DNA from: an uncultured archaeon
Lineage (GTDB): Archaea; Iainarchaeota; Iainarchaeia; Iainarchaeales; DTGL01
Direction: 5' to 3'
Assembly: GCA_964551725.1 (NCBI GenBank)
Contig: CAZKED010000001.1
Span: 42,119-106,118 of the forward strand
DNA: 64,000 nucleotides
Part shown: in pieces, positions 31,367 through 53,600 of the stretch
Layout: each line of letters opens with the position of its first letter
How positions within the stretch are numbered: position 1 is the first letter of the stretch
The notes under the pieces: generated by a model
Told to the model about the DNA's origin: nothing
The model's database searches: none
What the model saw: only the letters and a program-made list of their open reading frames with translations
Position numbers and translations under genes: made by a program

Positions 31367-31404
31367 TCTTCCGCCTTCTCTCCTTTTTTCCCGTTTTGAT
31401 TCTT

Positions 31405-32821: not shown

Positions 32822-33376
32822 TCATTTTGAGTATCTCAACGCGACAAGGCAGCATGTTGCCTCGTCCTCGGTGCAGGGGCAGCCCTCAATCCATTCCGCC
32901 TTGAGGCCCTCGTTGCTGTAGTCCTCTATCGCCTGTTCCAGGAGAGTGCCTGAATCGCATAGAACGGAAAGGGTTGCCTCCCTTTTTCCCGTTACGTCGA
33001 GCGCGATTTTTTCAGGCGAACCGTTTTCCTGCCCCTCCGCGAAATCGCCGCTGTCGGCGAAATCACCCAGGCTGAGGCAGACTTTGTCGTTTGCCACTCC
33101 CCATTGCGCAATCGAAATCACTTCCTTGGAAAGCATTGTGCTTTTTTTTGAGCTGTCGAATGTTACCTTGCTCGACCTTTCGTAGCCACCCCTGTCGCTC
33201 AGCTTTTGCACGAGCTCGCCCGCTTTCTGGGCGGGTTCGTCCTTGGGGAAAAAATCCCACCATGGACCATAGATCAAGGTTAAAAGTATTCCCAGGATTG
33301 CAAGTGCAACTATTGCCGAAATCAAAAGCTTGAAAACGGAAAAGGACTGTCCTTTTTCATTGCGGAAAAAATTCAT
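32822..33376 (-). CDS. Type IV pilin-like protein (class-III signal MNFFRNEKG|QSFSVFKLLISAIVALAILGILLT)
   Basis: A GAGGTGA ribosome-binding site lies 5 nt upstream of the ATG at 33376. The C-terminus is Cys-rich (CPCTEDEATCCLVALRYSK). It is a paralogue of the next gene. Confidence 0.7.
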   Translation of the reverse strand: MNFFRNEKGQSFSVFKLLISAIVALAILGILLTLIYGPWWDFFPKDEPAQKAGELVQKLSDRGGYERSSKVTFDSSKKSTMLSKEVISIAQWGVANDKVCLSLGDFADSGDFAEGQENGSPEKIALDVTGKREATLSVLCDSGTLLEQAIEDYSNEGLKAEWIEGCPCTEDEATCCLVALRYSK

Positions 33377-33406
33377 CAGTTTCACCTCAGCATAAAAAGC
33401 AAAAAC

Positions 33407-33420: not shown

Positions 33421-33515
33421 CAGAAGAATAGAAGGATTTCTCCTATTTAATGGTTTCTATGGGGGGTTTCGGCTGAAAAAAAACAGGCGGAATAAAAAGG
33501 GGAAAAAGGAAGCTT

Positions 33516-34064
33516 TCAGCGCTTCCTTAACGCTATGAGGCAGCACATTTCGTCCCTGCCCTCAAAATCGCAGTCGTCCGTCCACTCTTCCTCGAGCCCT
33601 TCGTATTCTCCTATTTCCTCTATGTCCGCTTCTATGAGGTCGCCCGCGTTGCAGAGCACCGAAAGTTCGACGTCCCTGCTGCCGCCCCTGTTGAAGGCTA
33701 TGAGCTGCGGAGAACCGTTCTCTTGTCCTGCTTCAAAGTCGTCTGTTTCTGAGAAATCGCCCAGGCTGAGGCATATCTGGTCGGGTGCCATTCCAACTTC
33801 CGCGGCAGCGATTATTTCACTGCTCCTCATTGTCTTTTTGTCAGCGCCAAATGTTACCACGTCTGACTTTTCATAGCCGCCCCTGTCTCTCAGTTCTCCT
33901 ACAAGCTCTGCCGCCTGCTCTGTCGGGTCTGCTTCCGTTCCAATCTGACCTATCGAGTTGATTACTGTCATCAGTATTCCGAGGATTGCCATTGCAATAA
34001 TCGCCGCAATGAGAAGCTTGAATGCTGAAAACGCCTGACCTCTTTCGTTTCGCAAAAAAACCAT
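33516..34064 (-). CDS. Type IV pilin-like protein (class-III signal MVFLRNERG|QAFSAFKLLIAAIIAMAILGILMT), tandem paralogue of 32822-33376
   Basis: The two paralogues share RDRGGYE, ICLSLGDF...DFAEGQENGSP, LSVLC and CCL[IV]ALR. A GAGGTGA ribosome-binding site lies before the ATG at 34064. Confidence 0.7.
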   Translation of the reverse strand: MVFLRNERGQAFSAFKLLIAAIIAMAILGILMTVINSIGQIGTEADPTEQAAELVGELRDRGGYEKSDVVTFGADKKTMRSSEIIAAAEVGMAPDQICLSLGDFSETDDFEAGQENGSPQLIAFNRGGSRDVELSVLCNAGDLIEADIEEIGEYEGLEEEWTDDCDFEGRDEMCCLIALRKR

Positions 34065-34100
34065 CCACATTCACCTCTGAATTCAGCGCATAAGCACAGC

Positions 34101-34114
34101 GCAAAACGTTTTGC
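34101..34114. promoter_or_regulatory. Perfect 14-bp palindrome GCAAAACGTTTTGC upstream of the pilin gene. Candidate operator.
   Basis: Read directly. The flanking roughly 50 bp (tgccag(g)aagaata(a)gga..tt(c)(t)cctatttaat(g/t)gtttc) are also conserved with the copy near 33400-33460. Confidence 0.4.
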
Positions 34115-34187
34115 CAGGAAGAATAAGGAAATTCACCTATTTAATTGTTTCTTTTTTGCGCGGCGCTTCCTGGGCGCTTCCGATTCG

Positions 34188-34640: not shown

Positions 34641-37190
34641 TCAGAATCCTCCTCCGAAAGAACTCACAACAATATTGGTTACAAAGAAGGAAACAGTGAA
34701 AACAATCATTGAAATGGGCACGTACTTTGCGAGGTTGACTTTAACTAACAGGTTGTTGTCCTCCTCTATTTTCGTGGTGTAATAAATCACAATCACCGCT
34801 ATTTCGACGATGTAAACAAGCATTATCGCAAGGAACATGGGCGCGGAAACCATTGAAAGAAGCGCCTCGGGGTTAATCAACTGCTCGAAGGTTGTAACGT
34901 TGAACGTGCCGAGCCCCGCGCCGGCTGCCGCTTCGCTACTCTCGAAAAGGTCGTCCCCTGCAAAGGAGGCGAACAGCCGCACGATTACCTTGAACAATGA
35001 AGTGGTGATTCCGAGCACTACCGGTGCAATGAAAACAATCATTGTGCGCATTAACTGGGAGATGTCCATCACGAGGTTCTTCAGCATTTTTGAAACCTTT
35101 TCAGAATTCTCAAGCTGCAGGGACATTGAAACAAGGGTTCTGGCGGCAACATTCACTCCGAGTTTTACCGAGTCAACGAGCACTTTCATTCCCACTTTTA
35201 TTGTTTTTGACGGAATGTTCACCAGCGCGCCGTAGCGCGGGTCGAAAACCGCGGACTCCAATGGCATGCCCATCAGGTGGATGTTGTCGAGTGCTCTCCC
35301 AAAAATTCTGTCGGAGATTTTGTAGTTGGGTAGGAATTCCTTCACGTGCCTCAGCGCTTCCTCCATTGGCTTGTTTTCCCCCAAGCGCGAGGCGATAATG
35401 TACAGTGAGTCCTTGAATTCGGATTCGAGCTGCATTATTTCAACCTGCACCTTGCGCCTGTAAATGTTGGAGTAGTATACGAAAAAGTAAATGCATACTG
35501 CTGTGGTCAGCATCAGCCCGAAGATTAAATTGTTGGGCGTGGTGTCGTTTTCCTTCTGCATGAAGAAAACGGTTTTCCTGTAATAAAGGGCTTTTTCTGC
35601 CGCAATTCTTGCAAGCTCTGATTTGAGTCTCGCGGTCGACCAGCCGGGGTTCTGCTGCTCAAGTGCTTTTGCGTAATCCTCGCCCACGTATTTTCTCAGT
35701 TCCGAGAGCTCGGTGGCGTTGGAGGAGTACTCCCTGAAAAATTCGTTGTAGACATCCCCGCCTTCAGTGCTTCCGGCGGGCGGCAGTGCAAAGTAGTCCT
35801 CGTTGTAACCGCCTTCTCGGAGCACGTCGGCTTCCCGCCTGTCCGCGGGAAGCAATTGCTCGTCGGGAAGCAGCGGTTCGTTCCTTCCTTCAATCCCGTA
35901 GCCCGTGGACTTCGGGGGAATTCCTTCAACGTGCAGGAACCATGAAACGCTGACTCCGGCAATTAAAATTATTGCAATGGGAATCCATACGCTCATTTCC
36001 CTCCTGCCCAAAACCATTCTCCCCTTTTTGGGCAGTCCCGGATAGTTTTCCGGAATTTCCGGCGGCTCGTAAGTGGGTGGTCTCTGCCTCACCACCTGCA
36101 CTGCAAAAAAGAAGACGCCCAGCGGAATGCCAACATTGTACAAGAGCACCAGCACGACGGGATTTGCGAGAGGCGAACCCGTGACGAACGCGCCTATGGG
36201 AAGCACGATGAATAAGATTATTGGCAGCAGGACGCCGAGGTAGAACAGTATGGCGGAAGGCATTGAAAGGTCGCGGGCGTACTGCTCCATTTTTTCCTTT
36301 ACCGCGGAAAGAAGCCCTTCAGTGGTTTTGTCGAGGAGGGCATACCTCTTTGCTTCGGTGTCCTCGAGCACTGAAGCGCGGATGCGCATTAGTGCGAGCT
36401 TGAATTCCTTGCTGTACTTTCCCCACTTGTAGGCGAGTTCGTCCAGCCCTTCGGAGAGTGTTGGGTAAACGCCGATCTCAACGCTCCAGAGCAATGACCT
36501 GAAATCCGCGGAAATTTTTCCGCGTCCGTGTTCGGCTGCAAACTCAACCGCTTTTTCGAGGTTGGGGGTCAGCTTGAGGGACATTACCATGTACCCAATC
36601 ATTTCCGGAATATAGCCAAGAGCGCGCCTTTGCTCTGTTTTTATAACGCTCACGGGATAGCGCTGCACGAGCCTCGGCAGGAAAAAGACGAGAAGGAACA
36701 CCGGCATGAGTATGTAGATTATCCACATGGGTCCCGCGAGGGAAGAGAGCATTCCCGAAAGAGGAGTGAACCAGACAAGCATTACAAAGGCAAAGCTCAG
36801 CACTAGAGAGAGGAGCATTGTGAATTTGACAGCGGCGGAGAACTCCTCGGGTTTTATGTCCCAGCCGAGGAAATCAACGGCATTCCTGAATTCTTCCGTG
36901 AATTTTGCCCCTTTTCCCAGCGAGGGCATTGTCCTGTAAGCGCGCTTGCAGAAGCGAACGAAGCGGGGCTCTTTCTTCTTGAAGAGCTTTTTTTCCCCTT
37001 TTTCGAATTCCTCCGAGCTGAACTCTATTTCCTTGTAAAGCCTGCCCGGGGAAACCCTTCTCTTCGGCTTGGGTCTGGTGTGCAAAGGTCTTGCCTCGCG
37101 CCTGCTTTCCCTTTCAGGCGCTTTGTCAATCTTCCTGCGCCTTTCGTACCTTCGAGGCATTAAAAATTCCTCACTTGGAAAACCGGCCAA
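34641..37190 (-). CDS. FlaJ/TadC-like polytopic platform protein (T2SS-F domains), 849 aa
   Basis: A basic N-terminus is followed by multiple TM helices flanking cytoplasmic helical domains (LEKAVEFAAEHGRGKISADFRSLLWSVEIGV...LSEGLDELAYKW, and later a second similar domain). It overlaps the ATPase gene by 20 nt. Confidence 0.75.
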   Translation of the reverse strand: MAGFPSEEFLMPRRYERRRKIDKAPERESRREARPLHTRPKPKRRVSPGRLYKEIEFSSEEFEKGEKKLFKKKEPRFVRFCKRAYRTMPSLGKGAKFTEEFRNAVDFLGWDIKPEEFSAAVKFTMLLSLVLSFAFVMLVWFTPLSGMLSSLAGPMWIIYILMPVFLLVFFLPRLVQRYPVSVIKTEQRRALGYIPEMIGYMVMSLKLTPNLEKAVEFAAEHGRGKISADFRSLLWSVEIGVYPTLSEGLDELAYKWGKYSKEFKLALMRIRASVLEDTEAKRYALLDKTTEGLLSAVKEKMEQYARDLSMPSAILFYLGVLLPIILFIVLPIGAFVTGSPLANPVVLVLLYNVGIPLGVFFFAVQVVRQRPPTYEPPEIPENYPGLPKKGRMVLGRREMSVWIPIAIILIAGVSVSWFLHVEGIPPKSTGYGIEGRNEPLLPDEQLLPADRREADVLREGGYNEDYFALPPAGSTEGGDVYNEFFREYSSNATELSELRKYVGEDYAKALEQQNPGWSTARLKSELARIAAEKALYYRKTVFFMQKENDTTPNNLIFGLMLTTAVCIYFFVYYSNIYRRKVQVEIMQLESEFKDSLYIIASRLGENKPMEEALRHVKEFLPNYKISDRIFGRALDNIHLMGMPLESAVFDPRYGALVNIPSKTIKVGMKVLVDSVKLGVNVAARTLVSMSLQLENSEKVSKMLKNLVMDISQLMRTMIVFIAPVVLGITTSLFKVIVRLFASFAGDDLFESSEAAAGAGLGTFNVTTFEQLINPEALLSMVSAPMFLAIMLVYIVEIAVIVIYYTTKIEEDNNLLVKVNLAKYVPISMIVFTVSFFVTNIVVSSFGGGF

Positions 37191-39441
37191 CCATTGATTC
37201 CCGCACCCAGTCCTTCCATTCTTTCAGCACTTCCCTGTAGTTGACCTTTCCTTTTTCCTCGATTTCCTTTTCCTTCAAGAGCATTAATTTGTCGTGCGCC
37301 AGCGCGGAGTTTTCCGCTTCAAGAATCTCGGGCAGGGAATGCTCTTCTTTCAGTTTCACCAGGAATTCCTTGGACTCGCCGCGCATTCTAATCTCCTCCC
37401 ACATCTGCTGCATTGAGAGACCGGAAACCCTGCTTATTTTTTCGAAAATGTCCGATTCCTTCAAGTTGTCTTCCAGCAGTTCGAGCCTGTCCTTTTTGGC
37501 ATCATAGCGCATTAAGTCCAGCAACCCGCCTTCTCTTTCCGGGTCCTCAACCCAGTGCTTTTTTATTTCGGTTACTTCAACAACCCTGCGGTGGCTTTTT
37601 AGGGAACCGCCGAACCTTATGGGGCGGGCGGTAACAACAATGTCCGTTGCCTTGAAGGAGGTTGTCGGAACATCCAAGTCATTCACGACGCGGTCCCAGA
37701 CAGCGTAAGCGGAATCGCCGTGAATCGTTCCCATTACAACGTTGCCTGCAGCCCCAATGCGCATTGCCTCGTACAAAGTGCGCGCTTCCGTGGAGCGCAC
37801 TTCACCGAGCACCAGAGCGCTGTCGCCCAGGCGCAGGGCGGTGCGAAGTGCCTCTTCTGGGGCAACCTCTGTCTCGGTTTTTGAGACTCCTATGGGCGAG
37901 CGTGTTTTGAGCCTCTGTATGTTGAAGCCGATTCTCTTCATGTACTCCGCGGGAATTTCAAGCGTGTCCTCCTGGAGTATTATTCTCGAGTTCTTGGGAA
38001 TTTCGAGAATGTTCGCTGCCATCAGCGAGGTCTTGCCCGAGCCCCTGGAACCTGTAACGAGCATTGTTGTCTTGTTGTCGATGAAAAAGGAAATGAGCCC
38101 GGCTGCCATCGGATTCAAAAATTTCACGTCAATAAACTGTGCCAAAGTCCAGGGCGTGACCTTGTGCAGGCGGAAAGCGAATGCGACTCCGTCCGGCGCC
38201 AAAGGCGGCCCTATGGTTGCAATTCTTGTCTCCAGTTCCGGCAAATCGAAGTCGAGCACCGGGTGCGCTTCGTCGAATGGTCTTCCTGACATTGCGCGCA
38301 TTTTTGTTATGAGCGTCTGGGCTTCCTTTTCCGTGTAAAGAATGTTCGTGGAGCACTGCCCGAAATCCGAGTGCACCAAGTAAACCGGATTCTGCCCTAT
38401 TGGTGAATCCAAAAAAACATCCGTGAGCCTGCGGTCGGAGAGAATTATTTCAAGTATTCCGTAGCCCACGGTATAGCGCGCGACGATTTCGCTCAGTTCC
38501 TCCGCCTCTCTCTTCGTGATTTTTATTCCGTTTGTTTTCGCGACATCGAGGATTGTGCTCTGGTAAATGCGTTCGAAGTAATCCCGGGATTTTGCCACGG
38601 TGCTCAGCGACGCCTTTCCGGGAGTGTAGGCTGCAACGATTTCCTTTGTCTTGCTGAGAACGAAATATTTTTCGGGGGAAAGGGTGTATTCGGGCGGATT
38701 GATGAAGTATAGGTTCATTGTTTTGTTTGGGTGGTTGAATATCTGCACTGTGGTGTTCTTTACAGTATATTCGTCCAATAGCTCCAACTCTTCCTCGTCC
38801 TTGAACATTAACATCGAGCCTATGAAAGACGGCTTTATCTGGGCTTCGAAGAACACCCTGTATAAATCCTTTGTGTCCGGTATTTCCTCGAGTTCTGTCA
38901 AAAAGCGCTTTACTTTCTGTATGAGCGCGGTTTTTTCGAATTCGTCTTTCATGTATGCGAGGGTGCGCAGGTAAACCTTGCTTCCCTGCTTGTACTGTTC
39001 GCTGCCTTCCTTGTACCTGGCTTTTTCTTTCTGGAGTTCGAGCACGCAGGTGAAGTAGGCTTTTATGGGATCGTATGCGATGAGGTCGTGCGCTATCGTT
39101 ACCGCCATTTTGTGCCTGGGACCCAAAAACATTTCGTCCGCGCCTGGCTCGCCCAGATTCTTCGACGCCCAGACGGTTTCCGCGTCAAATTTCTGCATCA
39201 GTTCTACTATTTCCTTGAGGAGTGCAGTCTGCGCCTGGTCGTAAACGCGCTCGTAGGCTTCCGCCAGCACTATCAGGTCCGCTTCCATTTCGGACATCGC
39301 TTTTATTACGTGGTAACGGCATGCTTGGTCGTCCGCTATCGAGGTGCCGTAAACGCATTCCCTGCAGTCGAATAGCAGGTGGCGCTTGTTGGCTTCCTCT
39401 TTAACGGTGTAATCCCCTACCTTGAACCCGCCTATTTTCAT
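37171..39441 (-). CDS. FlaI/PilB-like type IV pilus/secretion ATPase with a long N-terminal extension
   Basis: The core carries Walker A LVTGSRGSGKTSLMAANI, Walker B RIILQEDTLEIP and His-box GDSALVLGEVRSTEARTLYEAMRIGAAGNVVMGTIHG. The N-terminal roughly 330 aa carry CRECVYGTSIADDQACRYH. The ATG at 39441 is preceded by AGGTG, and the track GTG is at 39459. Confidence 0.85.
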   Translation of the reverse strand: MKIGGFKVGDYTVKEEANKRHLLFDCRECVYGTSIADDQACRYHVIKAMSEMEADLIVLAEAYERVYDQAQTALLKEIVELMQKFDAETVWASKNLGEPGADEMFLGPRHKMAVTIAHDLIAYDPIKAYFTCVLELQKEKARYKEGSEQYKQGSKVYLRTLAYMKDEFEKTALIQKVKRFLTELEEIPDTKDLYRVFFEAQIKPSFIGSMLMFKDEEELELLDEYTVKNTTVQIFNHPNKTMNLYFINPPEYTLSPEKYFVLSKTKEIVAAYTPGKASLSTVAKSRDYFERIYQSTILDVAKTNGIKITKREAEELSEIVARYTVGYGILEIILSDRRLTDVFLDSPIGQNPVYLVHSDFGQCSTNILYTEKEAQTLITKMRAMSGRPFDEAHPVLDFDLPELETRIATIGPPLAPDGVAFAFRLHKVTPWTLAQFIDVKFLNPMAAGLISFFIDNKTTMLVTGSRGSGKTSLMAANILEIPKNSRIILQEDTLEIPAEYMKRIGFNIQRLKTRSPIGVSKTETEVAPEEALRTALRLGDSALVLGEVRSTEARTLYEAMRIGAAGNVVMGTIHGDSAYAVWDRVVNDLDVPTTSFKATDIVVTARPIRFGGSLKSHRRVVEVTEIKKHWVEDPEREGGLLDLMRYDAKKDRLELLEDNLKESDIFEKISRVSGLSMQQMWEEIRMRGESKEFLVKLKEEHSLPEILEAENSALAHDKLMLLKEKEIEEKGKVNYREVLKEWKDWVRESMVGRFSK

Positions 39442-39459
39442 TTCCGCACCTTTTTGCAC

Positions 39460-39584
39460 CCTTTGCGCGTTTTCCGCGTGCTGCAGAAAAAAGGGCTTAA
39501 GTCATTATTAAACCTATCTCTCCCCGCCGCGGGAGCGCAAAAAAAAGGGTTAAATTGCTTTTCGTTTTTAATTTCACTGGTAGA
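39460..39584. promoter_or_regulatory. Divergent promoter region between the ATPase operon (-) and the sortase-like gene (+)
   Basis: It contains tttaataatgac (minus-strand TATA-like) and two AAAAAAGGG(C/T)TTAA motifs at about 39487 and 39540. Confidence 0.3.
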
Positions 39585-40217
39585 ATGGCGCGCAGGAAAA
39601 ATAATGCAGATGCTTTCGCCGCCGCGCGCGCGGCGGCGGAAAAATGGCTGGCATTCGAGAGAAAGAATGCAAAAAGCGAGGCGTTCAAGGCAGCAAAATT
39701 TCTGGCGGCATTCGCCCTCGTTTTTTTCGGGCTGAATTTTTTTCTCTCTTTTGTGCCGCTGCAGTTTTTCGAGGTGCCGGTGGCAGTGGCAATAAAGGGA
39801 TTCCTTGCAACGCAGAGCGTTGGGGCAAGAATCATTGCAACGGAGCCCGTTATAGTGGCGGCGGAAACAGGGCTTGATGTGTCAGTATCATACCTCTGCA
39901 CAGGGCTGCTCGAAAGCGTTGTGTGGATTGGAATAATCGCCGCTTCCCTGGGCGTGGAGTGGAAGAAGCGCTTGGCAGGCGCGTTCCTCGGTTTGGCTGG
40001 ACTGGCGGCATTCAATCTTTTGAGAATTTTCACAACGCTCTATTTCGTGCTCAACTCGGATGTCAGCACGGTGACTTTTATACATAACACATTTTTCAGA
40101 GCCGCATTATTCGCTGTATTGGTCGGATTTTACGGAATATGGTTCTGGCTTTCGGTCAGGAGCGAAATGACCAGAGGGAGGGAAAAGGGAAAAAGGCAAA
40201 AGAAACAAAAAAACTAA
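39585..40217 (+). CDS. Polytopic membrane protein with exosortase/archaeosortase-like features (small ArtE-like variant?)
   Basis: The 210-aa ORF has a cytoplasmic Ala-rich N-terminus, at least 5 TM helices, Cys115 in SYLCTGL, Arg157 in FNLLRIF (an N-x-x-R-I context, C-to-R spacing 42), and a basic tail. It sits immediately upstream of the giant-protein array. The assignment is by motif only. Confidence 0.4.
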   Translation: MARRKNNADAFAAARAAAEKWLAFERKNAKSEAFKAAKFLAAFALVFFGLNFFLSFVPLQFFEVPVAVAIKGFLATQSVGARIIATEPVIVAAETGLDVSVSYLCTGLLESVVWIGIIAASLGVEWKKRLAGAFLGLAGLAAFNLLRIFTTLYFVLNSDVSTVTFIHNTFFRAALFAVLVGFYGIWFWLSVRSEMTRGREKGKRQKKQKN

Positions 40218-40293: not shown

Positions 40294-43200
40294 ATGTTCG
40301 GAAACTCACTTGGCTCCTTTTACACAAAGATTGAGGACAAATGGTATTCCGCCATAGACTGGCTTGACCGGAAAGGAATTCCTTTTTACGTTTTCACGGA
40401 TTTTCTCGAAAAGCGCGGAATTCCCTCGCTTCCTTTTTCAATCGCCGTCTTGTTTTTGCTCGTGCTATTGCTTTCCACTGTTTCTTTCGGAACAGCCGTG
40501 AATGCAACGCTTTCATTCAACATTTCAGATGCACACGGAGACCCGCTGCAGGGCGTTACAGTAACAATAACCGATGCAGCAGGAAAGCAGGTGGAAAAGA
40601 AAGCGGTAAGCGACGGCGGGAAAATTTTACTGCAGGGCGCCCCGGTCGGAGCGGTTTACGAAATAAGCGCCGCAAAGCCGGGCTATGTTCAGGATGACAC
40701 CACTGCAAAAATTGATTCTGCTTCGGTGAATGTTTACCTCACGCTCAGGGCGGACTTGCAGCTTGCAGAGGGAATGCTTTCCCTCGTGGACGAAAGAAGC
40801 GGCACGGCAGTTAGGAATCCCGTGTGCATTGTGAAATACGAGGGGCTGGACATTGACGGCAGCGTGGACAGCAAGCAGGTGATTCATTTCAGCGGCATTC
40901 CCGCGGGAGAGGAAGTGATAGTGCAGTGCACGGCGAACGGATACGAGGACCTTTCAATCCCAATCGCGTTCAGGGAAGGCGAAACAATGCAGCAGGTCAT
41001 GACACCGCTTACCGCGGCGCTGACCGGCGACTCTTTTGTTCTCGTTTCATTGTACGAGTGGACTGACGGCGAGGCAAAGCCGCTGAGCGGGGTTCGCCTT
41101 ATAATAAAGAACGCGGAAACAGGAAATACGATAAGCGACGTCAATCTCGGGGAAGACGCGGAATACGCTGAAACGCTTAAAAAGGGCACGGTCATAACAA
41201 TCACAGCGGAAAAAGAGGGCTTTATTACTGCGGTGTGGCCTGAAACCACTCTCAGGGAGGAGGAAACGCCAATTGAAATCGTGATGAGGAAAGGCGGCGA
41301 AAAGCTCGTTGTGAGGGTGAATGCCGAGGACACGGGACCTTTAAGCGGTGCAATAGTGCAGTTGTACGATGCCGCGGCTGAACTGATAAAGGAGGAAACC
41401 ACAGACTTCAGCGGCTTCGTTGAGCTTGTGGGCATGGACCCTAACGCGACGTATTACATTACGGCGTACAAGGACCTGTACGTCGCGCAGAGGAAAAAAA
41501 TAATTCCCGGGGAACTCGAGGAACTTGTTTTCACTCTTGAGTACGCGAGCCCGCAGAATTCCTCCACGCTTTCAATAAAAGTGCTCGATTCTGCTGGATT
41601 CTATGCGAACGGCGCATCGCTTTATTTTTATGAAAGAAGCGGGGAAGAAGTGCTGCCTTTGGGCATTCCAGTAAAGTACGCTGACCTGAGGGGGGAAGCG
41701 ATAGCACAGGTTGAAAAGGAAAAGCTCGTTGTTGTCGTCGCCAAGAAGGATTTGGAAGAGGGAGAGGGCGAAGCGGAAATAACGCAGAGCTCGCACGAAA
41801 TGGAAATACAGATGGAAAAACCCGTCAATTTCGTCGAGCTGAAGCTCGTGGACGAATTCGGCAATCCGGTTCCTGGAACGGCGAACATTTCAACGCAGTC
41901 CGGCGAAGAGCTTTACAGCGGGGAAATTTCAGATGCAATATGGTTCGATTCGCAGGGAAACGAAAAAGTTGTGCTCGCGGTTGAACAGGAAGGGGAAAAA
42001 ATTTACGAGGAAGAAGTGGAAGTCGACAGCAAGACGGAAATAGAAATAGAAATTCCTTTGGGAGAAGAGGCAAGAATTCCTGCAATTGAATTCCTGGGCG
42101 TGTTCAACGCAATGGACGAGGAAGTCGAGGGAATCACGCGCGGTGAATATTACTGGCTGAAATTCAGCGCCAGTCTGCCGCAGTCGGAGAAAAGCGGGGT
42201 TCATGTCAGGGTGGGAAACGACTCGCAGAAGTTCGCGGACGAACAGCGCGTGGGAATCTACGGCTTTGATTCCGCACCTGGAGACTTTTTCTTCGGGCGC
42301 AGCTACCAGCCCCCCTCGGGACAGGCAATCGACTACAAGAACCGCGGGAAAGCGGGAGAGAAAAACAAATGGGTTGAAATCTATTTCGACAACCCGGCGG
42401 ACACAGAAATAATAAGGGTGAAAGTAAAAACAGAGGAAACCTTTTCAAGGGAAGAATTCGAAGTGCACTTCAGGGCGTTCGCGAAATTCAGGGGAAAATT
42501 CTACAATTCTCCGCAGAGCACCGGGGAAATGCAGCTTTATTCCGAGACGTACAGCGAGAGCGTGAGGGTTTTCACCACACGCACGCTGTGCAGCGAGGGA
42601 CTGTGCGCCGGCTACCTGTTCAGGGACGCGGAGGGAATGGAATTCAGGGAAAACGAATTCAAGCCCATACTGGAAAGACCCTACGCGCTTGAAATAACGC
42701 TGAGCGCGAAAGAAGGGGAAAAGGTGAATCTCACAGCGAGCACGAGAGCGAATGCCGCGGCAATGGCATTCTGGGGGATTTCACTGGACGAGTTTGCAGT
42801 CGTTCCCGAGCAGGGCTACGAGCTCGCGAGCGCGGACATAGCGGACGTGCAGGTAGAGCGCGGCGAGGAAGTCAAAGCGGTTGTTTATTTCATGCCAAAG
42901 GAAACAGGGCAGGGCTATCTGGAGATATCCGTGCAGGGAACGGAGAACGAGATAAGGAAGAAATTCTACTTCGACGTGGCGGAGGAAAGAAACATAAGCA
43001 TTGAAATGCCCGGAAAAGGAAAGCTCACCCTCGGGGAAAACCTTTTCCTGCGCCTGACCGACGCGGAAACAAGCGAATTTTTGACAAACGCGAAACTCAG
43101 GCTTGAAAACATCGACACAGAGAAGATTGAAGTCTCAACCGTAGGAACGAACACGAGAAACAACGGCTTGAACGGGGAATATTCCCTTGAAACCTCGCAC

Positions 43201-46200: not shown

Positions 46201-48624
46201 TCGGTGAGCATTGAATTGTGCTGGATTCACCCCTACAGCTTGCTGGACAAATTGGAGGGAGTTCACGTTGACCCGGGTGAAACAAAAACGTTTTATGCAA
46301 CGCTCAACTGGGAAGGCGACCCAGACAAAATCACCACTGCAGCGCTTGACAAGGCAAGGGCGGCAATGGAAACACTGGAAGAGGGCGACATTCCCGCTGG
46401 CGAAGCACAGGAAGGAAGCACACTGCTGCCTGCAAGCTCGGGTCCCGGAATACTCGCGGGAATGGCAGCATGCACCATAACGGATTTCGGAATAGGCGTG
46501 TTCATGTACACTCCCCTGGGCTCACTCGTTAATTCCGTGTTTGACTGCATTGTTCCCGGGCTGTGGAATTATTTGAAGACCACCACCTGGGGGACCCCCA
46601 TTGTTAAAGCGCTTACAACAGCGTGGCAAACAGTGAAAAAGATTCCCGTAATAGGACACATAATAAGCGGAGTGCAGACAGCGCTTGGATGGGTTGCCCG
46701 CGGCATAAGCAAGGCGGTAAGCGGTATTTACGGAGTAATGCTGGGCGAGCCCGGCGCTTCGGCGGAGGAAGCTACGGAAAACCTGCTTGCCTCTGGCGTA
46801 ACCGGCGTGCAGATTAATTCCGTGCGAAGGTATCTGACAAGTGAAATGGCCGGCACAAAACTGCTGGACCTTGTTTCAATAAGACCCGGGCACGAGGGAC
46901 AGCTGACGACAGCCGGCAGAGCAATCGCGAAGGAAACCGCGGACAGGGTGGCAGCGGATTATGTCGACGTAATATTCACCGGTGCTTCCTCAAGCGCCGA
47001 TGACATTATTAAAGGGGTTAGGACGGAGCTAGCTAAAGCCCTACAGTCCGAAATGGAAACCGAGTTGAGGAGAGTGGGCAACACTGTGCACAGCAACCAT
47101 GCAGCCGCAAAGCTTTTCGGCGGAGACGAACTGGGAAGAGGTTACAGAACAGCAAGCGTTTCAAGCATTATTGACGATGCCTCCAAGGGTCCCTGGTCTA
47201 AAGCGTACGAAAAGCTCTGGTCCTCAAAGTTCGCGGCAAGAGGCACTACAAAAAAGAGCATGATGGACTGGGTGCAGCACGCGGACGTGAAGGGCGCGGA
47301 GATTGCCAACAGGATTTTGCAGGCAAAGGCGAGCGTTTTGGATGACCTGGCAGGACCGGCTTTGGTTGAAGGCGTGACATTCCCAGATTTTGGAATTGAT
47401 GATATTCACGCAACAGGCGCTCGCGACAAGGTCGTCGATGCTGTGACAAACAGCATTTCTGGCAAGCTTAAAAGCAAGGGAATAAACCTGACCAGCACCA
47501 TGCAAACGAATCTGAGGGAATCTGTTGAAACGGCAGTAGGTGCTGTGTACGCAGAAACTCCCCATATACCAGGCAACAGACCACTGGTTCCAAACCCAGA
47601 AGCCGGAGTAATACGGGGCAACAACGCCAAGGTCGCCGCGCAGATGGCGCTTGATGATTTCGTTTCAAAGTACGGGGACAACCTGCTCAGAGCTTCACCC
47701 GAAGCGCTGAAGGCAATGGCCCAGAAACTTGGAATAACGGTGGATGAATTGTTAGAGCTTGGCGCGAAAAAGACTTTCTGGCAGAAATGGTTCACAGCAA
47801 AAGGATGGGCTGAAAGGGGGCGCAGGCTCGTGAACTGGAGGAACCTGAAGGAATTCGGAAAAGCCGCTGGATTGGGAATGCTTGCCAACTGGGTCGGCGG
47901 CTTCGTGGCGGAAGCGGTTAACGCGGAAGCACCCGAGGAAGCCGAGGCGGGGATTGCAGCGCCGACTATTGAGGGCGAACCCGAATTCCTGGAAGGATAT
48001 ATTGTGAGCTCGCCCGAATACGTGTACAAGCACCGCACTTACAGGGTGGATGTTACCGGCGGCAGGGATGGAAAGCCGCGGTATTCTCTCAACATGGTTG
48101 ACACTCCGGAAGAAAGGGAGGAAATGCGCGAGGCAATTGCTGAGAATCCTGACATTGTGCTGACCGACTCGTGCAGTGAATCTCCCACCAGAGACATGGG
48201 CGGGGTGTTTATCGCAAGGCTTGTTCCGGACTTCGAAAAAGAAGGGGATTACGCGCGCGCCTATTACCTGTACGGGGACGCTTTCAGCAGCACCGCCACT
48301 TACTATCAGCTGGACGATTCACTGCTGATGGCTGTTTTGATGGTTTCGCCGGAGAAAATAAGGGATTGTGGCATACCGAATGACTGGTTCAAGCAGGCAG
48401 ACGAAATACAGAAGCAGTCCATTGACTGCGCGGGCAAAAAACTGTGGGAGAACAGCGCAAGCAACCTGAGAAGCCAGCCCGGCGATTACCACGAGAACCT
48501 TGAAGGAGTGCTCGAGGGAATGGTCGGCAGTTCTGCCTTTGAAAGCACGGAAGACTGGACCAATTATATTGACATGGTTTACGGGAACGACGAGCGCTGG
48601 AATGAAAATTACCAGCCCGATTGA
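40294..48624 (+). CDS. Giant surface protein paralogue 1 (2776 aa). It has a conserved N-terminal leader plus TM, CarboxypepD_reg/Ig-like repeats, a YCDAVQ domain, and a C-terminal roughly 730-aa extension with hydrophobic glycine-zipper-like segments.
   Basis: The N-terminus reads MFGNSLGSFYTKIEDKWYSAIDWLDRKGIPFYVFTDFLEKRGIPSLPFSIAVLFLLVLLL. Transthyretin-like repeats recur (LSFNISDAHGDPLQGVTVTITDAAGK...). The hydrophobic segments are GPGILAGMAACTITDFGIGVFMYTPLGSLV and IPVIGHIISGVQTALGWVARGISKAVSGIYGVMLG. Confidence 0.8.
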   Translation: MFGNSLGSFYTKIEDKWYSAIDWLDRKGIPFYVFTDFLEKRGIPSLPFSIAVLFLLVLLLSTVSFGTAVNATLSFNISDAHGDPLQGVTVTITDAAGKQVEKKAVSDGGKILLQGAPVGAVYEISAAKPGYVQDDTTAKIDSASVNVYLTLRADLQLAEGMLSLVDERSGTAVRNPVCIVKYEGLDIDGSVDSKQVIHFSGIPAGEEVIVQCTANGYEDLSIPIAFREGETMQQVMTPLTAALTGDSFVLVSLYEWTDGEAKPLSGVRLIIKNAETGNTISDVNLGEDAEYAETLKKGTVITITAEKEGFITAVWPETTLREEETPIEIVMRKGGEKLVVRVNAEDTGPLSGAIVQLYDAAAELIKEETTDFSGFVELVGMDPNATYYITAYKDLYVAQRKKIIPGELEELVFTLEYASPQNSSTLSIKVLDSAGFYANGASLYFYERSGEEVLPLGIPVKYADLRGEAIAQVEKEKLVVVVAKKDLEEGEGEAEITQSSHEMEIQMEKPVNFVELKLVDEFGNPVPGTANISTQSGEELYSGEISDAIWFDSQGNEKVVLAVEQEGEKIYEEEVEVDSKTEIEIEIPLGEEARIPAIEFLGVFNAMDEEVEGITRGEYYWLKFSASLPQSEKSGVHVRVGNDSQKFADEQRVGIYGFDSAPGDFFFGRSYQPPSGQAIDYKNRGKAGEKNKWVEIYFDNPADTEIIRVKVKTEETFSREEFEVHFRAFAKFRGKFYNSPQSTGEMQLYSETYSESVRVFTTRTLCSEGLCAGYLFRDAEGMEFRENEFKPILERPYALEITLSAKEGEKVNLTASTRANAAAMAFWGISLDEFAVVPEQGYELASADIADVQVERGEEVKAVVYFMPKETGQGYLEISVQGTENEIRKKFYFDVAEERNISIEMPGKGKLTLGENLFLRLTDAETSEFLTNAKLRLENIDTEKIEVSTVGTNTRNNGLNGEYSLETSHLEPGFYKIVASLYGYVEAEKPVIILTDEVLEIESPVEISMERCALEGKCETSGEATAKITNNLGLPVEVKGFRFEHIRMPNEFTLSADVSDILEGESAVYITAVFSGMYDKHLHGESDLVIEGSVGNVSVEATARVKVSYNKELPSDCLTIDKDSLQVLMLGNEGSTETVSFEVEYSRREECYRDSALEFSVYSEALRSDEDITVEETTFSLSPGEKRDVRLSITNNIKRFYSASLKREFEIFIESADITKSIPLTVLLKDPVFFLETNDNITLWMSKDEESGEISGIAPLYMRNTGELPIESLSFSIAESPASINITVLQDGGNLTYLTQPALQAYSARIPMGDGMALYGAPLQPGEQASPPKTIYASTTSTGIDKGPHRAIIEIRGVVKGEEHFLRNVAVWIHVSTPKCLKLYMTDTDFRSAESEQGTISKTATIENNCGETVREITLDPKKFGENTLNLNPLRKAFLSPGEKTEWKVIMEKREDYSAETELRAKGFLVSTQRYIYSDPIPITIAIGTEAETSAGPSLEAFTMPVCETDEEKEIHYPDIASYEDKDCAQGYCDAVQLSEFLLKKAEEKIQAVKRRLQDGSYDVSNFDNCQDSAGLCSFTSLDVTPTVLTVYMNNDNLSAEVAEHVKDTGSFPELKGFVVDYFDGTISDLVSREGFFAPFHLYMPTNVTGCGKYVFSVKGAVQNIQGKLEEDKILILIEFTEERKITPECTNEVQNVMNFLPVDKGLTHRNNKSAWPATVEATSELEELGKKIADELFDDEKRSTTGSVSLNKLRLKYGDEEQGGILVIKLMRVSSTEARPKTVEALITPMHRDSADDVKETLEESIVEAFGKLAQSSQDLDMCIDAQGESFTLLGLESRGEISISGEERIELYYEEEGCADLNVFSSVMEKVSLKTNWKEMREAGENAGLSDVYIKVAGERVKEYSNEERVLGDSFRLERNPAGNNYYMEFQVCAKGDIDAIDEAFGKEVKVRAKSASFAGREMKDWHSVSIELCWIHPYSLLDKLEGVHVDPGETKTFYATLNWEGDPDKITTAALDKARAAMETLEEGDIPAGEAQEGSTLLPASSGPGILAGMAACTITDFGIGVFMYTPLGSLVNSVFDCIVPGLWNYLKTTTWGTPIVKALTTAWQTVKKIPVIGHIISGVQTALGWVARGISKAVSGIYGVMLGEPGASAEEATENLLASGVTGVQINSVRRYLTSEMAGTKLLDLVSIRPGHEGQLTTAGRAIAKETADRVAADYVDVIFTGASSSADDIIKGVRTELAKALQSEMETELRRVGNTVHSNHAAAKLFGGDELGRGYRTASVSSIIDDASKGPWSKAYEKLWSSKFAARGTTKKSMMDWVQHADVKGAEIANRILQAKASVLDDLAGPALVEGVTFPDFGIDDIHATGARDKVVDAVTNSISGKLKSKGINLTSTMQTNLRESVETAVGAVYAETPHIPGNRPLVPNPEAGVIRGNNAKVAAQMALDDFVSKYGDNLLRASPEALKAMAQKLGITVDELLELGAKKTFWQKWFTAKGWAERGRRLVNWRNLKEFGKAAGLGMLANWVGGFVAEAVNAEAPEEAEAGIAAPTIEGEPEFLEGYIVSSPEYVYKHRTYRVDVTGGRDGKPRYSLNMVDTPEEREEMREAIAENPDIVLTDSCSESPTRDMGGVFIARLVPDFEKEGDYARAYYLYGDAFSSTATYYQLDDSLLMAVLMVSPEKIRDCGIPNDWFKQADEIQKQSIDCAGKKLWENSASNLRSQPGDYHENLEGVLEGMVGSSAFESTEDWTNYIDMVYGNDERWNENYQPD

Positions 48625-48636
48625 AGGGGGAAAAAC

Positions 48637-50357
48637 TGGTGAATGAGCGCGCTTTCAATCTGTTCACTGCTCTCCTGGGATTCGTGCTCATTATTCTGAC
48701 CTCGCTGCTTGTAACAAGCATGATTTCAACCGAGGAATCAGCAACAAGCCTCATAAACGACTTGCAGGACCAGGCGAGAATTGAATCCGTTTCAAGGCTT
48801 GCACGCGCAGATGCAATACAGATAGTGAACTACGGAATGCGTATGAAAATAGACGAATGGCTGAGGGACAGTTCCTTTTCGCCGAGCGACCCGGACACGT
48901 GGGAGGACTGGGATGCCATAGTGGACGAATTCGAGAGGAAATTCGGGAGAGCCGAGGAGGGGAGCACGCAGCCGCTCATCAATAAAATAACGGGGCATCT
49001 CACGGGGCTGTTTGAATCATACGAGTTCGCGTTCGAGGGTTATAGGGTGAGGGTTATAAACAAGGGCAATTTTTCAAAAGTGCTGAATCCTTTGCTTGAA
49101 AAAGAGGTAGCGGAAGGCAGGTTGCTCGAGGTGATTGAGTGCAATGGAACGCCTGAAGACTGCGAAAGGGGAACTTTTTACGTTAACCTGAACATTGCGG
49201 AATTGAGCGACGAGGAATACGAGCAACTGCCTTTGCTGCAGGTCGAATACAGGAAGGGAAGCAAGACAATTACGGTGAGCGACCCGCTGCTTCCGAGGAA
49301 CAACATGCGCTTTTATTTTCCCTTCAGGTTTTTCAAGGCATTGAGCTATGCAAGGCAGTTCACGCACAGCGGGAGCGACGGGAAACTTGATTCCGCATTG
49401 CTTATAAACGGGGGACAGGATTACGGCTTTCTTTCCCCGAGAATCCACAACGAATTCGATGCTTACGCGCTGGGCATATGCGATTACGGGTACTGCTATC
49501 CGAGGACAAATCCATTGTATCCCCCGGAAAAAAAGAGCATACAGAAGGGCTGCCCGTTGGGAGCAGGCGCCGGCTCGAACCAGCTGGACAGCGTGCAGCT
49601 TTCGTTCAGCACCCCCAAGCACAGCATAAGCGAAACCTATAACCCGGGAAGCGCGGACGACATGAAGGAAAAACTCAAAAAAATCGCAAGCATAAGGCTC
49701 TGCGAAATTGCCGAAAACACGCTCGGCGGGGTGAGCGATTCCGACTTCGAGGTTGTTTCCTCCGCTGTTCAGGGAACAAGCTGTTATATCGCGGAAATTG
49801 ACAGGATGCACATTTATGAAACGCCCTCCAAGGAAATCGTGACAAAAAAGCGCGGCGACACGAGCGACGGCTGCGACGGCCAGCCCACGCATCCGCCGGG
49901 AACAACGGTTTCAGCGCAAGTGGTCAACGCGCCCAGCACAGGGGTGTGCCCTTACAATTTCACCCTGCCGGTGAACAGGAGAGTCGGAGTCTACTACTCC
50001 GGCGGTGAATGGGAGTTTCCTGTTCTCCGTACAGAAAAATGTGCGGGGGTTTCCGCCGGCTCAAGCGGTTCGGTGAAGTGCATGGAATTATCGGAGATAA
50101 AAATCACCCTCGGCTTCAGGGAAAACAACGAGAACTATAAAGTGATAAACGATTTGGACCTGCAGTACAATATAGGGGTTATAACGAACCGCCTGACAGG
50201 ATTCAATCCCAATTACGACCAGGGCGCAGTGGGAGCGGACTGCGCTTTTAACCAAGCACCCCAGGGAGGCAAGTGCAATTCTTCGGCTGGCTGGGTTTGC
50301 GAGAACTGGGTGGACTGCTATTACGGCGGAAAGGCTGTGGCATGCGTTCCCGCATAA
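48637..50357 (+). CDS. Cys-rich secreted or anchored protein (about 573 aa) with a possible class-III-type N-terminus (MNERA|FNLFTALLGFVLIILTSLLV)
   Basis: A GTG at 48637 is preceded by GAAGGGGGA. The track TTG at 48621 overlaps the upstream stop. There are more than 20 Cys in the extracellular part (CNGTPEDCERGTFY, CDYGYCYP, CNSSAGWVCENWVDCYYGGKAVACVPA). Confidence 0.55.
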
Positions 50358-50628
50358 CTGCGTTACGGAATTTTGGCGAAAAATTCGGGCGCAAAACATT
50401 TAAATAAGAAGTCAGTCATAATAATGTCATTATTGATATAAAGAATATAAAAAGAAAAAATAAAAGAGAGCTAAACAGGCATAAAAGCAGGGAAAACAGC
50501 GGTAAAAAAGAGGGAAACTCCTCAAATGGCGGGAATTGCACCGGAAAGTGAAAACAGGGGAAAACATATAATTAAATACACAATTCGGAAGAAATTATTT
50601 AATTGGTAAAGGTTATTAAGTGAATAAA

Positions 50629-53600
50629 ATGGGTGTGGTGGATTCAATCAAGGATTTCTACTTCCGCCTTGAGGAAAAATACTATAAATTCGTTGACTGG
50701 CTCGACACAAAGCATTTCCCCTACTACAAATTCGTTGACTTTGTCGAAAGCCGCGGCATTCCGAGTTTTCCGCTTTCCATAGCTGGAATTGCTGTCATTG
50801 CACTGCTTTTGTTTTTCTTTGCGGTTCCCCTGCTGGGAATCGAATTTCCCATTGCAAGAGTGCCTCTTTCAGTTGAGGTAATGGACGGGAAAGGAAACGG
50901 GATATACAACGCCTTGGTGGAAATAAAGGGAGCAGATTTTTCGGAGCAGGGAAGGACAGACGGAGCGGGAATTGCGGAATTCAACGTTCCGATGGAAACC
51001 CAGTTAACGGTAAGCGTTGAAAAGAGCGGGTTTGAAAAATACGCGGACTCGTTTTCCGTCAGCAGGGAGGAAACGAAAACAATCGAGTTAAGCGCGGAGG
51101 AAATCTCGAGGGAAATACTGTTCAAGAAAAAGGGGACAGAGGAGCTCGTGGAAGAGACAATAAACGTTTCATTCGAGTGCTCCAATATTGAGGCGGATTT
51201 CGAAGAGCAGAGAACAGTGCAAAACGGAAGGGTGGAACTGGATGGAATCCCCGCAAACTGCGGTCTGCTGGAAGTGAAGGTTGAGGGCTTTGCAGTGGAC
51301 AAAGACATTGATTTGGATGAAACGCTGCCCGAAGTTTTCCTGGCCGGGGAAGAAGCCGGAAAGGGAAGAGTGTACGTTCTCGTGAAGGAAGAGGAAACAA
51401 AAAAACCCCTTGAGGGAATGCGCGTAGTGCTTGTCGGAGCGGTGGAGCGCTCCGATCTGAGCGATGAATCGGGAAGCGTGGTATTCGAGGGCGTTCCGGC
51501 GGGAGATTACTACGTAAAAGTAATGGATGCGCTCGAATACGAGGACCATGTTTCGGACACAAAAACGCTGCAGGAGGAAGACAGCGTTACTTTCAGCATA
51601 GAACTCGGAAAAGCGGCAAGGGCGCAAATAAACCTCAAAGTGGTTGATGCTACAGGGGAGCCAGTGGAAAAGGCAGCACTCAAGCTCTACAGGCAGGGGG
51701 GAACAAGCGTTGAGTACTCCGGGGAAACCGACCCGATAGGGCAGTACACTTTTAATGTTCCCACTGAAACAAAATACACGCTCGTGGTGGACAAGGCGGG
51801 ATACTTCAAGGCGCAGCTTTCAGTCGAGGCACAGGAAGAATTTTTTGAGGTAACGCTGAAGGAACAGACCTCGGAGAACGGCGGGTCAATTGCAGTGAGC
51901 GCAAAGGACCAGAAAGGGAATGCTGTTGAAAACGTGAAGGTAGAATTAAAACTTGCCGACGGGGAATTCACGGGATACAGCGCTTTCACGGGAGCGGACG
52001 GAAGGGCTGAATTTACAGCAATAGAACCGGGCAATTACTACGTGTACGGCTCGAAGCAGGGCTTTGAAGGGTATGCAAGCAACGAGTTCCAGGTAAGAGA
52101 AAGGGAAATAACAAGCGTGCAGCTGGTGTTCGTAATAGGAGAGGGCGAGTTCCTGGTAAAAGTGCTCGACGATGCGGGAAACGCGCTGGCTGGTGCAAGC
52201 GTTGAAGCAATTGACGTTTTCACTGACAGGATGATGTCCCAAAAAACAACCGATTTAGAGGGCATCGCGCATTTCAGGGAGAGAGTGGACAGGAAGGTTT
52301 TTTTCGTGACGGAAGCCGACGGCTTTTTGCCTTTTGTGTCACTGCCCTTTGTACCGGTGCAGGACTCGCAGAGAGAAGTGGAAATCCGCATGATAAAAGG
52401 AACGGGAAAAATTAAAACAAGCATGACACTGCTGCTCAATGACATGGAAGTCAGGGAATTTGTCTCGGCAGGCGAAAGCTATAAGGCATTGGTGCAGCTG
52501 GTGCTGCCGAGCGAATACAATAAAGCGGGAATTCATTTGCGCGCGGGAGAAGATACTGAAGGAAAAGTGAATTCCGCCGAAGAAGACATCATTTTCATAA
52601 GGGAAATCGAAGCGGCGAACGCCAATATCAGGACAGGTTCAACTTATACCCCGCCTTTCGGGAGCGGGCAGGATTACGCAAGCAATGGGAGCACCAAGTG
52701 GGCGAACATAGAATTCGAGCCCGGGAAAAAGGGGCTGCCGAGCAGGGGCGTGTTCAACGCAATCGCGGAAGTGCAGGTAAGGGACGAAGCGGCAATGGGC
52801 GAGGATACAAAAATAAGCTACCGCGGTTATGGAGTAAGTGCAACGTATTCAAGGGACCCGATTGACGCGGCGCTTGGGAGCGCCGAATCCTCGGCAAGAA
52901 AGCATGGACTGTACGCGCAGGCATACGACAGGCATTTTTCCGTCGGACAGAGCAATGTGTGCAGCGGGGGCTACTGCAGGATTATCTTTATCGAGGACGT
53001 TGAAAGCGGAATGAAGAGCGCGGTAATTGATTCGTTTCCCGCGAACATTTCAAGCATGTATGAGTTAAACGTGAAACTCAACAAGGCAGGCGCGGGAAGT
53101 GTGAGGAATGCCTTCCTCGAAGTGCGCAACCCGGAACAGGGACTGGAATTCGGGGAATACTCAATCTCCGACGCGGCGGGAAGGAAGTTCGAGGGAAACG
53201 CGAACGGAAGCGAACTCTCAAAAGCCGTGGGAGACCTGGCGCAGGATTTAAGCGTGAGCGCGAGCATTGAATTCCAAACCCTCAAGGAGGGAACAAACCA
53301 GATTGAAATCTCGCTTGCATCGGAATCCGGAAAGGTGTTCGGGCAAACAATAAAGGTGAACGTGAGGGCGGGAGAAGAACTCCAGCTTGAAATCGTTCCC
53401 AAGGACATTGTGCCCTTCATCGACAACCAGCTGCTTTTCAGGGTTTCCACTCTGGAGGATGCACCAGTCCCAAACGCTTTTATCGAGCTTTCCCTTGACG
53501 GATACGACCTTGCAAGCGGGGAAACCGATAGCGCGGGAATATTCGCATTCGAACTCGAAGCGCCCAGCGCGGGCTCCGAGCTCCTGGCGAGAGTGAAAAA

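Follow-up and report, generated by a model that had tools for sequence, protein, structure and literature searches.

A conserved C-terminal module with a predicted lysozyme-like domain in a rare group of giant surface proteins from Iainarchaeota

We examined a stretch of 64,000 nucleotides (hereafter the window) from a contig of an uncultured Iainarchaeota archaeon (CAZKED010000001.1), in which three giant paralogous genes, here named P1, P2 and P3, follow one another on the + strand (Table 1). Public contigs were found to hold the exact P1 protein, and public contigs with an identical P2 (L003) extend the array beyond the window as far as a fourth paralogue, P4, of 2325 residues (L003 from position 25035), giving four giant paralogues in tandem. 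P1 is the sole member of this four-gene array to keep a C-terminal module of 727 residues (residues 2050-2776, hereafter the tail). Comparison with related genomes shows that the tail is a conserved module, placed at the C-terminus of giant surface proteins (2680-2920 residues) that form a rare orthologous group, and structure prediction suggests that it ends in a lysozyme-like domain.

An earlier reading of the window from its sequence alone had described a C-terminal extension of about 730 residues on P1 and its lack from P2, and both descriptions are confirmed here. Among the open reading frames (ORFs) of the window, P1 was the only match at E <= 1 to a hidden Markov model (HMM) of the tail; with P2, with full-length P3 and with the P2-type orthologues from three other genomes, the same model gave only weak, non-significant scores (best E 0.08). 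As the tail profile matches P1 only, the extension is both real and specific to P1. It is also coding sequence, matching an orthologue at E 9e-215 with 50% identity from end to end and, by tblastn, the closest named genome (L001) with 47% identity. The two hydrophobic segments quoted in the sequence-only reading sit where it placed them, at residues 2050-2094 and 2117-2151, and to these we add a third, Gly/Ala-rich helix (2524-2544) and a folded terminal domain. Its placement of the tail behind a repeat architecture shared with P2 was overstated: similarity between P1 and P2 is detectable to about residue 1150 (profile positions 3-1139), beyond which only a YCDAVQ motif is held in common, so that removing the tail from P1 would not yield P2. 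When the two C-terminal ends were compared by BLASTP, no significant similarity emerged, and a pairing by eye of 'NWEGDP' with 'SWNP' remains a guess. Its description of the rest of the tail as non-acidic holds for residues ~2150-2500, where the net charge is about zero, but not for the last ~230-280 residues, whose acidity equals that of the ectodomain (net charge of -0.09 to -0.12 per residue).

Conservation of the tail across orthologous giants

When 1.84 billion representative sequences were scanned exhaustively with HMMER, the tail was recovered in only 11 clusters. Five of these are full-length giants of 2680-2894 residues with the same N-terminus and tail, and two clusters of fragments hold full-length members of 2820 and 2920 residues; every member recoverable at full length is thus a giant of 2680-2920 residues with the same N-terminus. 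The parts of the tail occur in the same order in every relative found. Relatives with a named source all derive from Iainarchaeota/Diapherotrites metagenome-assembled genomes (MAGs), the closest named genome being a Candidatus Iainarchaeum MAG (L001), and one P1 orthologue has a public record under the name 'Candidatus Diapherotrites'. The P1 family is rare, and it is unannotated.

Gene order was compared between the window and four further loci (L001, L006, L007 and L008). In all five genomes a P1-type giant is followed by a pilin-like protein of 526-619 residues and then by a P2-type giant; in L006 and L008, where the contig goes on, a P3-type giant comes next, which matches the order in the window. 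Identity of the terminal domain to the closest orthologue, P0001, was 68-77%, compared with 64-69% for the ectodomain, and the corresponding values for a further orthologue, P0003, were 29-39% and 33-38%. Within the tail, the middle evolves fastest, with 32% identity to P0001 and 15-20% to the other sequences. These comparisons show vertical inheritance of the tail module, in company with the remainder of the gene and its neighbours.

This pattern bears directly on the proposal, made from sequence alone, that a conserved core with a variable C-terminus makes P1 resemble a polymorphic or cargo-bearing surface protein, that is, a conserved delivery scaffold with an exchangeable C-terminal effector. 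As in the polymorphic toxin systems CdiA, Rhs and MafB, a large surface or secreted protein here has a C-terminus that differs from that of its paralogues: P1 has its N-terminal ~1,150 residues in common with P2-P4 and ends unlike any of them, in a domain that is enzyme-like. When the C-termini of the orthologous giants were compared, however, the same tail was found on every orthologue and in conserved synteny, with the terminal domain diverging at about the rate of the core, in contrast to the variable C-termini of those systems. Neither the demarcation motifs VENN and PxxxxDPxGL nor YD repeats were present near the tail, no Rhs or YD Pfam matches were obtained, and the gene downstream of P1 encodes the conserved pilin-like protein rather than a small immunity protein; moreover, unlike CdiA, Rhs and MafB, the P1 tail holds membrane segments and a long helical domain. 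P2-type proteins end in a conserved ..C(V/I)...WN(P/S).. of their own in four genomes, which indicates an old and stable split between tailed and untailed paralogues. The tail is not shared with P3 and does carry membrane and effector-like features, but it is a common conserved module among the orthologues. The polymorphic-toxin reading is by now largely refuted, and we regard an exchangeable effector at this position as very improbable.

Anatomy, topology and predicted fold of the tail

Three alignments underlie the description of the tail: A1, the alignment of the tail itself; A2, a five-sequence profile; and A3, an 11-sequence alignment of residues 2569-2776. They show a fixed order of parts, from a Cys-bearing hydrophobic stretch through Cys-free helices, a basic cluster with a Gly/Ala helix, an acidic linker and a beta-alpha unit to the terminal domain (Table 1). 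The first stretch, whose hydrophobic part measures 23-45 residues, contains two conserved cysteines, C2060 and C2085 (in 'FDCxxPxxW'), has Wimley-White sums of 4-9 kcal/mol across seven sequences, and is followed by a flank of net positive charge in 5 of 7. AlphaFold2 (AF2) predicts helices here at extension residues 72-96 and 99-119, with predicted local distance difference test (pLDDT) scores of 58-64. In the orthologue P0010, an uninterrupted hydrophobic run of ~23 residues lies inside an aligned stretch of 36, leaving room for one membrane span and not for a hairpin. Both segments quoted earlier are moderately hydrophobic in P1 (Kyte-Doolittle 19-mer maxima 1.4-1.7; Wimley-White sums 3-6 kcal/mol), and the N-terminal transmembrane (TM) segment of the protein is strongly so (2.45 and 13 kcal/mol, respectively). 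Glycine makes up 14% of residues at the hydrophobic segments and 7.9% overall, and [GAS]xxxGxxx[GAS] motifs fall at residues 2048, 2143, 2147 and 2531, those at 2143 and 2147 having the form SxxxGxxxG. Pfam Gly-zipper models did not match the tail, in which such motifs are single.

The middle helical region spans 330-430 residues across orthologues, its net charge is zero or positive in every sequence, and it is devoid of cysteine in all ten sequences covering it (~3,400 residues), compared with cysteine contents of ~1% in the ectodomains and 1-2% in the flanking domains; this boundary in cysteine content is sharper than the hydrophobicity profile. The 30 residues ahead of the Gly/Ala helix are net positive in all 11 sequences (+2 to +8), and the net charge after the helix is -1 or lower in 8 of the 11. 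Within the helix, a candidate third membrane helix, G2535 is invariant and G2528 nearly so. In the beta-alpha unit, AF2 places strands at extension residues 595-626, followed by a helix at 630-642 (pLDDT 79-86); counted with this unit, the terminal region measures ~200 residues. A Band_7/SPFH match (22.8 bits, E 1e-4) was rejected: it appeared with one sub-query only, was not obtained with the whole tail, and the list of families for the 11 members did not include it. A tblastn search of the tail against a phage collection returned no match, and a pattern scan of metagenome contigs with A2 gave 600 matching patterns, none of which was a confirmed relative.

From these features we lean slightly towards a layout in which the N-terminus lies inside the cell, the first TM segment leads to an external ectodomain, the chain crosses inwards at 2050-2094, the helices lie inside, and a second crossing at 2524-2544 brings the terminal domain outside. 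This layout is favoured because both hydrophobic elements follow the positive-inside rule, there is a charge inversion and the middle region is free of cysteine. Ectodomain and terminal domain carry cysteines and are mostly acidic, and from the contrasting composition of the middle helices we infer that these are cytoplasmic. Three points argue the other way: in none of the orthologues does the Gly/Ala helix reach the Wimley-White TM threshold, it is predicted at a pLDDT of only 36-48, and the two helices modelled by AF2 in the first stretch would give an even number of crossings, which would leave the whole tail outside. The alternative layouts are accordingly those with the entire tail outside or with the terminal domain inside. 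The proposal that the hydrophobic pair enters a membrane is in this way upheld in part: the first stretch is conserved and both segments are plausible, but residues 2117-2151 are kept in P0001 only.

For the terminal domain, AF2 supplied with the 11-sequence alignment gave pLDDT scores of 73-93 over the last ~130 residues; the mean for the single sequence was 37.8. In Foldseek searches with the resulting model, the only high-probability match was the cod g-type lysozyme (probability 0.96, E 0.49). The domain was also compared by local hhalign with an SLT reference alignment built from the domains of Escherichia coli Slt70, MltC, EmtA and MltD. It scored 27.9 (P 1.4e-3), a value reached by none of 200 column shuffles (mean 10.9, sd 2.0, maximum 17.9), and 19 further windows of 250 columns within the family gave scores of 8-16. 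The alignment pairs LDDSLLMAVLMVSPE (2673-2687) with VDESLILAIMQTES and NYIDMV with GYVKNV, in the order expected, so that the former helix is matched to the SLT helix bearing the catalytic Glu. A search of the PDB with the five-sequence profile produced one match, non-significant (E 1.4), to MltC at this same catalytic-Glu helix. Position +7 from the invariant A2680 (E2687 in P1), which follows a near-invariant Pro, is acidic in 8 of 11 sequences, and either +5 or +7 is acidic in all 11.

Several results weigh against this assignment. All Foldseek E-values exceed 0.3, the hhalign probability is just 17.5%, and the A3 profile retrieved nothing relevant from the PDB. No SLT, lysozyme or glucosaminidase Pfam family was found in the 11 members at E <= 10, and searches of Pfam, NCBIfam, PADLOC and PDB sequences with the tail and its sub-segments returned nothing recognised or usable. 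The canonical catalytic position, +5 from A2680, carries an acidic residue in just 3 of the 11 sequences, and GLMQ and AYNxG motifs are absent. We consider a lysozyme-like fold probable; that the domain is catalytic on peptidoglycan is a possibility we hold to be doubtful. Structure prediction and remote-homology searches have thus yielded a lysozyme-like predicted fold, with no sequence model matched, and of the effector idea in the sequence-only reading there survives an enzyme-like domain of this predicted fold at the end of the tail, but not a swappable cargo.

In its predicted form the domain resembles members of GH23 (Slt70, MltC, MltE, MltF and EtgA), g-type lysozyme and GH19-type endolysins, with which the helix before the catalytic Glu and a C-terminal Y-[VI]-x-x-[VI] helix align, and its size of ~130-150 residues is likewise similar. 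It differs from them in lacking ES, GLMQ and AYNxG, in carrying its acidic residue mostly at +7, after Pro, rather than at +5, in its three invariant cysteines and the beta-alpha unit in front, and in its host, an archaeon without murein.

The giant-gene array and its neighbours

Table 1. Positions in the window of the giant-gene array, the parts of the P1 tail and adjacent genes. Residue numbers refer to P1.
Feature	Position	Strand	Description
Exosortase/archaeosortase-family gene	39555..40217	+	TIGR04178, 29.7 bits (cutoff 23); 210-220 aa; directly upstream of P1
P1	40294..48624	+	2776 aa; N-terminal ~45-aa motif, TM ~43-61, ectodomain, C-terminal module
Last ectodomain element CWIHPY...NWEGDPDKI (1976-2013) and acidic linker (2014-2049)	46219..46440	+	CxIHP...GWxGxP conserved in A1; AF2 pLDDT 80-88 over first 30 residues
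First hydrophobic Gly-rich stretch, GPGILAGMAAC...PGLWNYL (2050-2094)	46441..46575	+	36-55 aa in 7 of 7 covering sequences
Amphipathic glycine-zipper-like segment, IPVIGHII...SGIYGVMLG (2117-2151)	46642..46746	+	Aligns with P0001 only; AF2 pLDDT ~30
Middle helical region (2152-2491)	46747..47766	+	All helices in AF2, pLDDT mostly 66-85
Basic cluster KKTFWQKW...RNLKEFGK (2492-2523) and Gly/Ala-rich helix AAGLGMLANWVGGFVAEAVNA (2524-2544)	47767..47925	+	Consensus KGxAxGxxANxAG
Acidic linker (2545-2568) and beta-sheet/helix unit (2569-2620)	47926..48153	+	A1, A3; K2579, Y2583, G2593 and M2611 conserved
C-terminal domain, predicted lysozyme-like (GH23/GH19-type) fold (2621-2776)	48154..48621	+	Invariant C2627, C2692, C2712, A2680 and W2698
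Partner gene	48621..50357	+	578 aa; TTG start overlapping the P1 stop
P2	50620..57831	+	2403 aa (public call starts at 50629, 2400 aa); without tail; ends ..EVCVRNAGEEKMVLSWNPQILEDLRP
P3	57924..64000 (leaves window)	+	Full length 2570 aa on L003 (17296-25008); without tail

The ectodomain of P1, of ~1,950 residues, is acidic and contains CarboxypepD_reg/Ig-like domains (Pfam PF13620 at 1.3e-16). Just before the TM segment, P1, P2 and their orthologues have in common an N-terminal motif of ~45 residues, ..WY..DWLD.KGIP.Y.F.DF.E.RGIPS.P.. (40294-40518 and 50620-50880, +), in which the sequence at the junction between RG and IPS is reminiscent of class III (prepilin-type) cleavage sites, although the leader would be unusually long. 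P3 consists in part of Cys-rich 'C..GG..C' repeats linked by acidic PAEEPE, and its interior includes Gly-rich hydrophobic segments, of which SGSAAGMVALGAIDVSSVLGPLAEGLGGLL is an example. The protein encoded by the partner gene has an N-terminus (..NERAFNLFTALLGFVLIIL..) that resembles the signal of archaeal pilins, is rich in cysteine in its C-terminal region and is matched by no family model; its orthologues, of 583, 526, 591 and 619 residues in L001, L006, L007 and L008, respectively, follow every P1-type gene examined.

An archaeosortase homologue also lies upstream of the P1-type gene in L001, L007 (PF09721) and L008, and is not adjacent in L006, which gives four of five genomes with the window counted. 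P1, P2, P3 and the 578-residue protein all lack a sortase-type C-terminal signal; in P1, which ends ..NDERWNENYQPD without a terminal TM segment, no tripartite sorting signal was present at the C-terminus. We considered cleavage of P1 as an archaeosortase substrate at the 'GPG' ahead of the first hydrophobic stretch, and rejected it, since orthologues do not keep the motif and the protein does not end in a basic cluster. Tripartite C-terminal sorting signals were found in only two ORFs of the window. The first (24224-28741, -) encodes a protein of 1505 residues ending in ..WNLPSLPENALE, a TM segment and RRRILIVRKKN, and its 'NLPSLP' motif is kept in an orthologue of 1528 residues (L006 4029-8615, -). 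The second (37-2262, +) encodes a protein of 741 residues ending in ..PTGFFGL, a TM segment and KFRKTPLQKKSK. These two proteins are likelier archaeosortase substrates than the giants.

Genes of T2SSE and T2SSF type lie near the array. A type-IV-pilus-like operon (30051-39459, -) lies beyond the archaeosortase gene, farther upstream and in the opposite orientation. It includes a T2SSE ATPase (37171..39459, -), an ORF of 849 residues with hydrophobic segments and no family match (34641..37190, -), and several small ORFs (33516..34070 and 32822..33385, -) that begin ..RNE(K/R)GQ(A/S)FS(A/V)FKLLI.., resembling pilin-type signals, and have no family match. Farther away, a T2SSE-type ATPase carries an N-terminal 4Fe-4S dicluster ferredoxin (17195-18988, +; Fer4 at residues 31-114, T2SSE at 290-493), an unusual fusion. 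The window also encodes an unrelated giant of 3140 residues (5987-15409, +) with a signal-anchor-like N-terminus and many Asp/Asn/Thr-rich repeats of ~170 residues; its C-terminal half gives sub-threshold fn3/Ig-like matches, and it has no C-terminal anchor.

Proposed role and relation to known systems

We propose a model in which P1 would be anchored at its N-terminus and display its ectodomain in the manner of an adhesin, after which the chain would go back into the cell's own membrane at 2050-2094. Some 400 residues would then form a helical domain on the cytoplasmic side, and the chain would return across the membrane through the Gly/Ala helix, exposing an acidic, Cys-containing, lysozyme-like domain outside, beside the ectodomain. 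This head could bind or cut glycan of a partner's wall, most plausibly bacterial peptidoglycan because the producer is an archaeon without murein. Topology and enzyme activity are both inferred, and we judge the chance that P1 is such a doubly anchored, adhesin-like giant with a lysozyme-like head to be about even. A consideration against this model is that Iainarchaeota are regarded as possibly free-living (PMC10936187).

Two other accounts of the tail use much of the same evidence. The tail might act solely as a second anchor and cytoplasmic scaffold, tying the far end of the ectodomain to the cell's own membrane and to cytoplasmic partners such as the ATPases of the type-IV-pilus-like system; the terminal domain might then be a structural helical bundle with no glycan role, and could even be cytoplasmic if the chain crosses only once. 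Conservation of the hydrophobic stretches with their basic flanks, the proximity of the T2SSE and T2SSF genes, and the combination of no lysozyme sequence-model match with the loss of the canonical catalytic Glu, GLMQ and AYNxG would all suit such a scaffold. The SLT profile similarity, however, is specific to the terminal domain, whose three invariant cysteines and acidity resemble the ectodomain and not the Cys-free middle, and we consider a pure scaffold unlikely. Alternatively, by analogy with fusion peptides, colicin hairpins and phage tape-measure or ejection proteins, the Gly/Ala stretches could be kept outside and enter a partner's membrane on contact, while the lysozyme-like domain would open its wall. 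In favour of this account, the hydrophobicity is marginal and the composition Gly/Ala-rich, neither of which is typical of TM helices that are constitutive; the first stretch is a two-helix hairpin in the AF2 model; and the succession of hydrophobic segments, long helices and a lytic domain is reminiscent of tape-measure proteins, which prevail among the BFVD matches. Those structural matches are nonetheless weak, all with probability <= 0.28, and in contrast to tape-measure proteins P1 occurs in a cellular context with ~1,950 residues of ectodomain in front. Further, the basic flanks are those that the positive-inside rule predicts for the membrane of the producer itself, neither a release nor a cleavage site was identified, and the neutral, Cys-free middle fits a compartment other than that of the ectodomain; penetration of a host envelope therefore appears distinctly unlikely.

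A broader possibility is that the archaeosortase, the four adhesin-like giants and the pilin-like protein, beside the type-IV-pilus operon, may constitute a conserved contact apparatus in Iainarchaeota, the lineage of DPANN archaea for which a free-living existence is suggested most often. One giant would then end in a hidden wall-lytic device, whose Gly/Ala-rich hydrophobic helices and lysozyme-like head would breach a bacterial partner's envelope. We hold this extension of the model to be improbable at present; if true, it would represent a cross-domain episymbiotic or predatory attack module without sequence-detectable relatives.

The general theme of giant DPANN proteins with wall-lytic domains is already known, and our model accords with it: large proteins with murein-type lytic transglycosylase domains have been reported from Woesearchaeota and Pacearchaeota (PMC8204110; PMC10936187). 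Members of one such family (fam00969, PMC8204110) resemble P1 in coming from DPANN archaea, in reaching ~3,000 residues, in their predicted surface location and, with the domain of P1 as predicted, in a lysozyme/lytic-transglycosylase-type domain proposed to target bacterial walls. By their description they are set apart from P1, since their domains are detectable from sequence and their hosts are Woesearchaeota and Pacearchaeota, whereas P1 belongs to Iainarchaeota, has no Pfam match in this domain and carries it at the extreme C-terminus, behind membrane segments and a helical region of ~400 residues. The model also agrees with reports on the Omnitrophota, in which giant 'Archaeovorin'/dockerin-type proteins contain wall-degrading domains, including SLT, that are often found by structure prediction alone (bioRxiv 10.1101/2023.11.21.568195). 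These are similarly very long, membrane-associated and mostly extracellular, and come from ultra-small cells. Unlike P1, which has fewer than 3,000 residues and only two or three membrane regions, they are bacterial proteins of 10,000-85,000 residues with many TM regions and SecA-like domains, and no sequence relationship was found. For the layout proposed for the tail of P1, in which a helical domain lies between two membrane segments and a lysozyme-like head comes last, we could find no described counterpart.

With the present analysis, some 730 residues previously free of annotation gain a domain map and one testable activity, and the tail can be set apart from toxin-swapping systems. The double anchoring, with a possibly intracellular, Cys-free region, would be an unusual hold on an ectodomain of ~1,950 residues. 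Sequence models do not see the terminal domain, and this case illustrates how domains of wall-lytic type can escape them. Should the domain bind or cut peptidoglycan, Iainarchaeota would touch bacterial walls despite their debated lifestyle, and the wall-lytic giants of DPANN archaea would extend past Woesearchaeota and Pacearchaeota.

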